Positions 5,167-6,112 of a DNA stretch of 32,000 bases are shown piece by piece (the stretch's first letter is position 1; every line of letters starts with the position of its first letter). The DNA lies in NCBI RefSeq assembly GCF_025697965.1, contig NZ_JAHWBK010000003.1; one strand, written 5' to 3'. Origin of the DNA: Stenotrophomonas riyadhensis. GTDB lineage: Bacteria > Pseudomonadota > Gammaproteobacteria > Xanthomonadales > Xanthomonadaceae. The notes below the pieces were generated by a model. It saw only the letters and a program-made list of their open reading frames with translations, made no database searches and was not told where the DNA came from. A program made the translations under genes and the position numbers.

Positions 5167-5505
5167 TCACACGCGCTGGCGGCGTTTCGGCCCCGGTACT
5201 GGCAGGACTGCTGCTGGCGGCTCGGCGTCGGGCCCAGCCATCGCCCTGGACGAACGCCGTTGGTTTTTCATCAACACGTCCCGAATTGCCACCACGGCGC
5301 AGCCCTTGTGTAGCAAGGGTTTCCGGATGCCGTTCGCCGGCACTCCACGGGTCTCCATCAGCCGGCGCCATTCCTGCGCCTGCGCAGCGGTTAGCGACAG
5401 CCACGCGAGGTCTTGGGGTTCCAGCTCGCGGCCCTCGGGTGTGACCAGGCGGCCACCTTTAAACGAAAAACCGGCCCAAGGGCCGGTCAGTTTCCGATCA
5501 CGCAC
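5167..5505 (-). CDS. DUF3653/XafT-like protein, copy A (start uncertain)
   Basis: Contains ...RDRKLTGPWAGFSFKGGRLVTPEGRELEPQDLAWLSLTAAQAQEWRRLME...MAGPDAEPPAAVLPVPGPKRRQRV*, homologous to 5721-6077 and 13301-13672. The ATG equivalent to the B/C start (5518) is out of frame by 1 nt, so the gene either uses the GTG at 5505 or has a 5' frameshift. Confidence 0.55.
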   Translation of the reverse strand: MRDRKLTGPWAGFSFKGGRLVTPEGRELEPQDLAWLSLTAAQAQEWRRLMETRGVPANGIRKPLLHKGCAVVAIRDVLMKNQRRSSRAMAGPDAEPPAAVLPVPGPKRRQRV

Positions 5506-5573
5506 GATCAGGCTCCATGCCAGAGTAGGAGCCGGGGAGACGGCAAGAGCCGTGCCAGCCACCCTCGCAGTAG

Positions 5574-5601
5574 CTTGAACATAATATACATTATGCGAAA
5601 T
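5574..5601 (-). other. dif-like XerC/XerD recombination site
   Basis: The reverse complement is ATTTCGCATAA-TGTATA-TTATGTTCAAG. By my count it matches E. coli dif (GGTGCGCATAA TGTATA TTATGTTAAAT) at 23/28 positions: XerC arm 8/11, central region 6/6, XerD arm 9/11. Confidence 0.8.
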
Positions 5602-5720
5602 TGTATCAGGCGCTTCGGTCAGCGCTGGTCCTCCTTCGTCGGCTCTGCGTGGCAATGGCTGGGTCTCTGGCTCGGCTCTTGCCTGCGCCCCGGAACCCCG
5701 GCCAAGGATGAGATCGCGGC

Positions 5721-6077
5721 ATGATTGAGTTCGACCCGCATCACCGTATCGACTTGACCGGCCCTTGGGCCGGTTTTTCTTTCCTCGGTGATCGACTGAT
5801 CACTCCTGAAGGCCGAGAACTGCTGCCTGAAGATCTGGCCTGGCTGTCGCTCACCGCCTGCCAAGCGCAGGAATGGCGCCGGATGATGGAAAACGGCCGC
5901 GCGATCGGCGGCACGCGAAAACCGTTGCCGCACAAGGCCGCCACCGTGGTGAATCTCTCCGATGCCCTGGCAGAACGCCGCAAAAAGCGGTTGCCGGTGG
6001 CGATGGCCGGACCCGACGCCGAGCCAACCACAGCAGTCCTGCCAGCACCGGGGCCGAAGCCTCTCCAGCGCGTGTAA
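5721..6077 (+). CDS. DUF3653/XafT-like protein, copy B, 118 aa
   Basis: MIEFDPHHRIDLTGPWAGFSFLGDRLITPEGRELLPEDLAWLSLTACQAQEWRRMME...AMAGPDAEPTTAVLPAPGPKPLQRV*. Starts 119 nt from the XerC-arm side of the dif-like site. The upstream leader is conserved with copy C. Confidence 0.7.
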   Translation: MIEFDPHHRIDLTGPWAGFSFLGDRLITPEGRELLPEDLAWLSLTACQAQEWRRMMENGRAIGGTRKPLPHKAATVVNLSDALAERRKKRLPVAMAGPDAEPTTAVLPAPGPKPLQRV

Positions 6078-6112
6078 GGCGCCTCCGTAGGGGCGCCGCC
6101 CCTACACCCCGG
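6078..6112 (+). repeat. GTAG...CTAC REP-like hairpin, copy B
   Basis: ggcgcctccGTAGGGGCgccGCCCCTACaccccgg, directly after the TAA of copy B and between convergent genes. Confidence 0.8.

Follow-up and report, generated by a model that had tools for sequence, protein, structure and literature searches.

Probable PSB15-type DUF3653 genes and their two hairpins in predicted inovirus prophages stacked at a Stenotrophomonas dif site

DUF3653 genes and Xer sites of the window

The window analysed here is the whole 32,000-nucleotide (nt) stretch of Stenotrophomonas riyadhensis DNA (NCBI RefSeq assembly GCF_025697965.1, contig NZ_JAHWBK010000003.1; one strand), and the subject is a small gene of the DUF3653 family that occurs in it in several copies near sites for the Xer recombinases, holds one hairpin (hairpin 1) inside its LTGPWAGF codons and is followed by another (hairpin 2). 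All four copies that a first-pass annotation, made from the letters alone, had located in the window (A to D) were recovered at the same positions, D being a C-terminal relic with an internal stop. Comparisons with phages and prophages suggest that copies A–D are probably ORF112/PSB15-type DUF3653 genes of separate inovirus prophages or remnants, and the window as a whole is recognizable from its sequence as a stack of SMA6-like and SMA9-like Stenotrophomonas inovirus prophages at the chromosomal dif site (Table 1).

Membership of A, B and C in the DUF3653 family, as the first-pass annotation had proposed, was confirmed by profile search, all three scoring above the Pfam gathering cut-off of PF12375 (DUF3653; 22.4 bits). 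For D, of which only the C-terminal part outside the DUF3653 domain is left, the Pfam search gave no match; read directly, the sequence gives GIRRERRLDAHDLGPDAEASIVV, stop, MSRGQRSCQRV, stop, and the phiSMA6-like DNA around it runs on to 25033. Copies A, B and C all carry LTGPWAGF(S/G)F....TPEG and thus the LTG, WAGFxF and TPE motifs that, together with a length of about 108–127 amino acids (aa), characterize the PSB15/ORF112 family. The protein of B is 67% identical to that of A and 46% identical to that of C, and copy A has the length and the start of ORF112 of phiSMA6 and phiSHP2. As is typical of the family, these genes are antisense to the structural genes and belong directly behind an XRE/DUF3693 repressor gene that holds the phage attachment site (attP). 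The order of repressor gene, attP inside its 3′ end and DUF3653 gene was found in 12 phage records, among them phiSMA9, phiSMA6, phiSHP2, PSH1, phiLf-UK, phiLf2, Cf2, phiXv2, Cf1c, Xf109 and XaF13. In the window, copy C is the only one still standing behind an intact repressor open reading frame (ORF), and at A and B the layout has been split at attP by integration. The repressor ORF before C is a hybrid whose 5′ part comes from prophage 2 and whose 3′ part comes from prophage 3; the second Xer site lies within it and it runs into the start of C, the same layout as in phiSMA9 ORF1-ORF2 and phiLf-UK ORF10-ORF9.

The further claim of the first-pass annotation, that a gene of this type stands beside each Xer site, holds for A, B and C; the window contains two Xer sites and not four, and none was found at D. 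The site between A and B is the sole one with both arms intact, and its XerD arm, contributed by prophage 1, equals that of the phiSHP2 attP together with the outer bases AAG and the flank. The second site, where prophages 2 and 3 meet, has an intact XerC arm and centre and a degenerate XerD arm; this junction was also present in a near-identical genome, L355. A sigma-70-like promoter at 5581–5609 (minus strand; CTGATA, 17 nt spacer, TATTAT) overlaps the first site and is directed into copy A; its −10 hexamer is built from the dif centre and the XerD arm, and it might drive A once integrated.

Alignment of the upstream regions separated two attP polarities. On the gene sense strand phiSMA9 reads degenerate arm, TATACA, TTATGCGAAAT, gene, with the XerC arm gene-proximal (SMA9 type), and phiSMA6 reads CAGCCGCATTC, TGTATA, TTATGTTCGGA, gene, with the XerD arm gene-proximal and the XerC arm degenerate (SMA6 type); in site orientation A aligns with phiSMA6, and B and C align with phiSMA9. 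The same two classes were evident among 78 IMG/VR genes ascertained by protein similarity, 65 of which had enough upstream DNA and a recognizable site. The centre and XerC arm were proximal at 37 of these 65 loci, where the N-terminus is MIEFDPHHRID, and the centre and XerD arm were proximal at the other 28, where it is SLIVRDRK/N, with no locus out of the 65 mixing N-terminal class and arm polarity. Both polarities also occur in Xanthomonas phages, Cf2 and phiLf2 being of the XerD-proximal kind.

Table 1. Positions of the DUF3653 genes, hairpins, Xer sites and prophage features in the window.
Feature	Position	Strand	Remarks
Copy A	5167-5505	-	GTG start, 112 aa; PF12375 36.7 bits
Copy B	5721-6077	+	118 aa; PF12375 34.5 bits; phrog_2188 E = 4e-43
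Copy C	13301-13672	+	123 aa; PF12375 28.5 bits; phrog_2188 E = 4e-45
Relic D	~24755-24899	+	C-terminal third of a C-like DUF3653 gene; in-frame TAG 24861-24863
Hairpin 2 of A	5139-5157	.	GTAGGGGC-agc-GCCCCTAC on plus strand; same element after phiSMA6 ORF112
Hairpin 2 of B	6087-6105	.	between B and the convergent ORF 6129-6578
Hairpin 2 of C	13682-13700	.	exact match
Decayed hairpin 2 of D	24909-24927	.	GTACGGGCGACTGCCCTAC; 3 mismatches to the pattern, no stable stem
Hairpin 1 in A	5469-5488	-	GACCGGCCCttGGGCCGGTT then TTTCGTTTAA; terminator scan; z = -2.0
Hairpin 1 in B	5756-5775	+	GACCGGCCCttGGGCCGGTT then TTTCTTTCCT; terminator scan; z = -2.6
Weakened hairpin 1 in C	13337-13354	+	ACCGGCCCatGGGCCGGA then TTCGGCTTC; last pair and T-run lost
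Full dif-like site	5574-5601	-	XerC arm ATTTCGCATAA, centre TGTATA, XerD arm TTATGTTCAAG; between A and B
Junction site, prophages 2/3	13164-13191	-	ATTTCGCATAA-TGTATA-CAACGTGGGCG; 110 nt upstream of C
Prophage 1	1..5573	+	SMA6/SHP2-like inovirus; extends past the left edge of the window
Prophage 1 pIII-like gene	888-2417		
Prophage 1 pVI-like gene	2420-2731		
Prophage 1 Zot	2733-4004	+	Pfam
Prophage 1 TraX/TrbP	4001-4627	+	Pfam TraX
Prophage 1 ORF137	4713-5126	-	
Prophage 2	5602..13163	-	complete SMA9/SMA6-mosaic inovirus; bordered by the two Xer sites
Prophage 2 DUF4124-like ORF	6129-6578		convergent with copy B
Prophage 2 TraX	6717-7343		Pfam
Prophage 2 Zot	7340-8545		Pfam
Prophage 2 pIII-like gene	8865-10313		
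Prophage 2 Rep_trans	11192-12247		Pfam
Candidate packaging signal, prophage 2	12121..12142	.	GGCCCGTGttactcCCCGGGCC; inside the Rep_trans gene; predicted
Prophage 2 repressor gene, 5′ part	12829-13163		
CI-like repressor ORF	12829..13314	+	HTH_3 and DUF3693 (Pfam); phrog_638
Prophage 3 remnant	13192..15230	-	right limit approximate; local blastn against phiSMA9 and phiSMA6; repeats D4, I7

Hairpins behind and inside the DUF3653 genes

Hairpin 2 has the form GTAGGGGC-N3-GCCCCTAC with the flanks CC- and -ACCCC, and its core is CCGTAGGGGC-N3-GCCCCTACACCCC with an 8-bp stem; no conservation was found downstream of ACCCC. The pattern GTAGGGGCnnnGCCCCTAC occurs exactly three times in the window, with an expectation of 0 in 100 shuffles. 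A hairpin had been claimed behind all four copies, and this was verified as an exact match behind A, B and C and as a decayed element behind D; the spacing of 0–1 nt then given applies to the block ggcgcctcc, which begins 0–1 nt past the stop codon, and the stem itself begins 9 nt past it. The folding energy of hairpin 2 is unremarkable in its G+C-rich context (z −0.7 to −1.75) and not significant alone, and the case for the element therefore rests on its conservation. Hairpin 2 was present in all 13 free phage genomes checked and sits 9–12 nt past the stop codon in 12/12 free phages with a full-length gene, with proteins down to 37% identity. It was found exactly, 9–10 nt past the stop codon, in every one of the 78 protein-ascertained relatives, and of 146 hairpins 2 in IMG/VR, 123 adjoin a DUF3653 gene at its 3′ end; agreement with the Zot/TraX strand was observed for 112 of 116. 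At this element the conserved lysogeny/PSB15 module gives way to variable cargo, and in Vibrio the hypervariable regions from zot to xafT lie at the same position (PMC12715192). Fused XafT-like genes, which come from other bacteria and stand at the same kind of dif, were without hairpin 2.

A second subfamily of short DUF3653 genes, with the C-terminus VVVDLAxWRxRHFG and occurring in X. translucens and Pseudomonas-type elements, carries the unchanged element, GCAGGGGC/GCCCCTGC, or a 9-bp stem GTAGGGGGC/GCCCCCTAC with matched G and C insertions. These compensated variants indicate that dyad symmetry is selected and that GTAG itself is dispensable. An invariant stem with a variable loop, which the first-pass annotation had taken as selection on structure, is read from the alignments as selection on sequence, and the evidence for pairing comes solely from the compensated variants of the second subfamily.

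As to its role, hairpin 2 would act in cis, as a signal that is read on the viral strand, with a complementary-strand origin as the first guess, a reading that is held with low confidence. The intergenic hairpins of Ff phages, namely the packaging signal and the complementary-strand origin, resemble it in being sequence-specific and read on the viral single strand, whereas hairpin 2 has a stem of just 8 bp and lies far from the phiLf (+) origin and packaging signal. A further likeness to Ff is found in phage XaF13 (L354, MN335248), whose DUF3653 gene has had its 3′ end replaced and in which hairpin 2 stands at the end of the rep gene (6739–6757) with its viral-strand polarity kept, 20 nt before a second perfect hairpin, CCGGTGAtcgcTCACCGG (region 6739–6794).

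Two points weigh against the viral-strand signal. Plasmids with only the phiLf (+) origin and packaging signal, mapped at nt 245–365, are still packaged and transduced, and hairpin 2 is therefore not strictly needed in cis for packaging or transduction. In addition, it has a main rival, possible yet rather doubtful, according to which hairpin 2 may be a U-tract-free transcription terminator or RNA 3′-end stabilizer insulating the DUF3653 transcript. Such an element would suit the fixed distance from the stop codon in the 78 relatives, the location between convergent genes in many phages and in the window (6077–6129), and the compensatory stem changes, which mean that pairing matters. However, the stem is followed by ACCCCGG, and by GGAGGCGCC on the other strand, so that hairpin 2 lacks on either strand the T-run of an intrinsic terminator, and the operon already has a canonical T-run terminator in hairpin 1. 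Moreover, the stem and its asymmetric flanks are invariant across genera and Rep families, which a purely structural terminator would not need, and the XaF13 element persists away from the gene with its strand polarity unchanged.

Other identities were considered for hairpin 2. That it is the published packaging signal was rejected, because the signal of phiLf-UK, CGCGGGCCTCTACAACCGGCACCGTG, lies elsewhere (nt 332–357 inside gII) and follows another stem consensus. GCCTCTACAACC and GCCCCTACACCCC are loosely alike, a likeness that was not relied on, and a reading of GTGTAGGG as similar to an FtsK-orienting polar sequence (KOPS) was dropped as unsupported.

Hairpin 1 lies on the stretch that encodes TGPWAGF and has the form of an intrinsic terminator, a G+C stem followed by a T-run. 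Its codons were compared in 32 representatives below 88% nucleotide identity: the four-fold degenerate codons ACC, GGC, GCC and GGT were invariant in 32/32, other conserved four-fold codons had an entropy of about 1.7–1.8 bits, and the third base of the Pro codon, in the loop, varies. GGT and the following TTT are presumably disfavoured codons in this G+C-rich setting. At the same position the second DUF3653 subfamily has ordinary synonymous variation, and the palindrome is absent. The stem begins 7–32 nt past the repressor stop codon in 11 genomes, and the GenBank record of XaF13 has a terminator annotated at this position. Given this form and constraint, hairpin 1 is most likely an intrinsic terminator or attenuator of the repressor transcript, and would limit DUF3653 expression by terminating or attenuating it. 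The weakened version in copy C was seen in the window only, among 85 distinct nucleotide versions, and the loss fits relaxed selection in a decaying prophage. Neither hairpin is covered by any Rfam family, and a full-text literature search with the stem sequence returned no relevant paper. The strict linkage and the constraint of both hairpins, for which the searchable literature held no match, are the only fresh points of this analysis, and they are modest.

Predicted function of the short DUF3653 proteins

By alignment, the closest characterized orthologue of these copies is PSB15 of phiLf-UK (ORF9; ORF112 of phiLf), which is 108 aa long and has the LTG, WAGFxF and TPE motifs in a DUF3653 domain at its N-terminus (bioRxiv 10.1101/2024.03.19.585677). 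A tblastn search of B against phiLf-UK matched residues 12–90 at 53% identity (E = 7e-17) to record positions 5073–5294, which are ORF112/ORF9, and aligned Thr13 of B with Thr7 of PSB15. PSB15 binds the packaging-signal hairpin inside gII and recruits the DNA to the inner membrane, and thioredoxin frees it; knockout of its start codon abolished phage production and left attL, attR and the replicative form unaltered, and the protein is described as conserved among inoviruses of Xanthomonas and Stenotrophomonas (10.1101/2024.03.19.585677). The genes studied here are alike in length (~110–125 aa), in the N-terminal position of DUF3653 and in being minus-strand genes that come immediately after an XRE/DUF3693 repressor gene with attP, and the phiLf-UK gene is also followed by hairpin 2 and holds hairpin 1. 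They differ in host, which here is Stenotrophomonas, and in their diverged C-terminal halves; moreover, binding of the packaging signal, cardiolipin and thioredoxin is a feature of PSB15 and putative in the present copies.

A PSB15-like assembly role is the most likely one for these copies by analogy, and we consider it reasonably probable. Going by orthology, the protein would act as a non-structural assembly factor whose LTG/WAGFxF/TPE motif would bind a packaging-signal hairpin in the replication gene and so bring the phage DNA to the inner membrane. In prophage 2, the candidate packaging signal GGCCCGTGttactcCCCGGGCC fits both the published stem consensus of Xanthomonas inoviruses, GGX(A/-)CCG(C/T)G, and the published location in the replication gene.

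Several points weigh against this role. The function of PSB15 rests on one preprint on a Xanthomonas phage, and the alignment comprises 79 residues at 53% identity; the integration test of that study was an end-point, qualitative polymerase chain reaction (PCR), with which a quantitative role in Xer recombination is still possible. Unlike the phiLf-UK gene, A and B were parted from their repressor promoters by integration and lack this link in the prophage state. Furthermore, in both polarity classes the DUF3653 gene lies within about 90–160 nt of attP, and the arm adjoining it is always the conserved one, both of which suggest a link to recombination.

Such a link is the substance of the XafT role that the first-pass annotation had proposed, in which the copies would be XafT-like Xer activation factors that bind XerD, allow FtsK-independent catalysis and drive integration at dif; this we regard as unlikely, though not negligibly so. 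XafT of the Vibrio cholerae satellite phage TLC is a fusion of a helix-turn-helix (HTH) domain and DUF3653 that activates XerD, the activity being credited to the DUF3653 domain, and every Xanthomonadales phage integrated at dif was noted to have DUF3653 genes adjoining the site, at times as multiple copies and with the orientation differing by subclass (Midonet et al., PMC6744903); the association of these genes with dif was therefore already published. The membership of A, B and C in the same family, their clustering at dif, the constant 90–160 nt between gene and attP, and the poor XerD arm of the SMA9-type attP (prophages 2 and 3), as in the partner attP of TLC XafT, all speak for an XafT-like role. 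However, the phiLf-UK PSB15 knockout still yields attL and attR, and A, B and C are without a fused HTH, which Pfam places on a separate upstream ORF. In the SMA6-type phages (prophage 1), unlike in TLC, the XerD arm is canonical and the XerC arm degenerate. Fused HTH-DUF3653 genes do occur at the same kind of dif, across from short DUF3653 genes, and the closeness to the Xer site is explained by the operon layout, in which the upstream repressor gene holds attP within its 3′ end. What stood of the earlier proposal is the domain and the adjacency to dif, and what lacked support is the inference from them, the genes being short and HTH-free and their nearest relative, PSB15, being a packaging factor whose knockout integrates. 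An assembly role and Xer activation are not mutually exclusive.

The RstR-XafT-attP module of Vibrio CTX-I inoviruses offers a comparison alongside XafT of TLC: both have the DUF3653 domain beside a dif-like attP, and in the Vibrio module the repressor and DUF3653 genes are likewise terminal in the prophage, with variable cargo from zot to the DUF3653 gene (PMC6744903, PMC12715192). The differences are that XafT is an HTH-DUF3653 fusion, whereas the HTH gene is separate and upstream here, and that activation of XerD has been shown for XafT only. At two loci (L361 2447–3615 and L365 2518–3651) a short DUF3653 gene with hairpin 2 was found opposite a fused HTH-DUF3653 gene at the same dif sequence, and these facing genes indicate that the short and fused forms are distinct lineages on different mobile elements that integrate by making use of Xer (IMEXs) that share one dif. 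In Xf409 (L013) and phiLf2 (L009), the repressor and DUF3653 parts are annotated or read as a single fused ORF of about 256–277 aa; phrog_34897 spans both parts of it, and an XafT-like architecture may exist in this phage group. A profile search of the PDB found no relative with a solved structure. On the whole, the earlier interpretation was right in part, as regards family and context, and probably mistaken about the function and about a host-repeat likeness of hairpin 2 that is taken up below.

Origin of the gene copies and of hairpin 2

The phages would have entered the chromosomal dif successively through XerCD. In these phages one minus-strand module comprises the repressor gene, which has attP within its 3′ end, and the DUF3653 gene, and with this layout the DUF3653 gene always ends up at the prophage end beside the Xer site after integration. 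Each phage type would restore an intact dif on its own DUF3653 side, so that the two types pile up on opposite sides of a single functional dif; A and B diverge from one intact dif as an inverted repeat because the two types carry opposite attP polarities. This two-polarity arrangement is shown at the level of sequence. At the distal end of prophage 1, which lies beyond the window, the model predicted a degenerate XerC arm and a real XerD arm, and these were found in L355, which is 99.4% identical to the window and reads AACGGCGGTA-TGTATA-TTATGTTCCGA at that junction, followed by chromosomal genes. The same head-to-head layout was observed at 35 other loci, where 870–1130 nt separate the two hairpins 2 and the divergent DUF3653 genes enclose a full dif.

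The junctions, the polarities and the recurrent head-to-head loci indicate that the copies are independent integrations and not products of local duplication. Duplication and inversion of one prophage, which the inverted repeats I1–I5 linking both sides of the dif site might suggest, is very improbable, given that the arms of these repeats are merely 79–89% identical, that the proteins have the low identities given above for A/B and B/C, that the two sides resemble different phage types with different attP polarity, and that the junction arms match the expectation for Xer integration. The presence of several copies is accounted for by several integrations. Earlier work already covers, or directly implies, the DUF3653 gene and its location at dif, its presence in more than one copy, and both attP polarities.

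For hairpin 2, the first-pass annotation had seen a likeness to the repetitive extragenic palindromes (REPs) of the host, of SMAG type, and had called for a count across genomes, which found the element to be phage-linked. In a genome scan with one genome per species, the Xanthomonadaceae had at most 2 loci each among the matches listed, an unrelated Bacillota metagenome-assembled genome, a true high-copy case, had 19, and the loci with conserved flanks adjoin DUF3653 genes or relics. These distributions, as far as the compared sequences go, show that hairpin 2 belongs to the phage and not to a host REP. That it is a SMAG-type REP lying in the prophages by chance deserves next to no credence. 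Both are short G+C-rich palindromes with GTAG (GTAG and CTAC ends in hairpin 2), and S. maltophilia is rich in GTAG-bearing SMAG elements (PMC2613905). However, the published SMAG consensus, GTAGTGCCGGCCGCTGGCCGGCA, differs in its stem and has GTAG outside it (PMC2613905), and no SMAG match was found in the window with up to 3 mismatches. Hairpin 2 is present in free phage genomes, has variants with GCAG/CTGC in which GTAG is dispensable, and occurs once per phage beside one gene, whereas SMAG elements are high-copy and dispersed.

A tentative and, on balance, less than probable synthesis is that two sequence-constrained hairpins, which bracket the short DUF3653 gene, may be cis signals of a portable lysogeny/assembly module, hairpin 2 being a complementary-strand origin (in Xanthomonadaceae and Pseudomonas-type inoviruses) or a protein docking site and hairpin 1 an attenuator setting the repressor:PSB15 ratio. 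Both hairpins, short and strongly constrained, are candidates for cis elements of integrative inoviruses, for the complementary-strand origin and for the control of PSB15 expression. For annotation, such genes would be better named ORF112/PSB15-type DUF3653 proteins than XafT, and DUF3653 genes together with the two attP polarities provide a simple rule for prophage borders in the dif arrays of Stenotrophomonas and Xanthomonas, the intact dif being the point where two DUF3653 genes diverge.

As for the remaining contents of the window, the prophage 1 stretch is 80% identical in nucleotides to phiSMA6 across 84% of its length, and the prophage 3 remnant contains the repressor 3′ end, copy C, hairpin 2, ORFs of no assigned family and relics resembling the Zot 3′ end. 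A 37-nt stretch of the Zot 3′ end (family D4) occurs three times, at 7401–7437, 14319–14355 and 23238–23274, and the latter two are relics of further phage copies beyond the intact prophages. Between the prophage 3 remnant and relic D lie two genes for RHS-repeat (rearrangement hot spot) toxins, 16430–20341 and 20355–23003, both on the minus strand; on either side of them is a direct repeat of ~660 bp (15264–15928 and 23418–24023; 99% identity), each with a Cys_rich_CPCC gene. Right of the inovirus array, a C4 antisense RNA (Rfam RF01695) was matched at 28579–28664 (plus strand; 62.7 bits, the gathering score being 45), which suggests another mobile or phage-derived region there.

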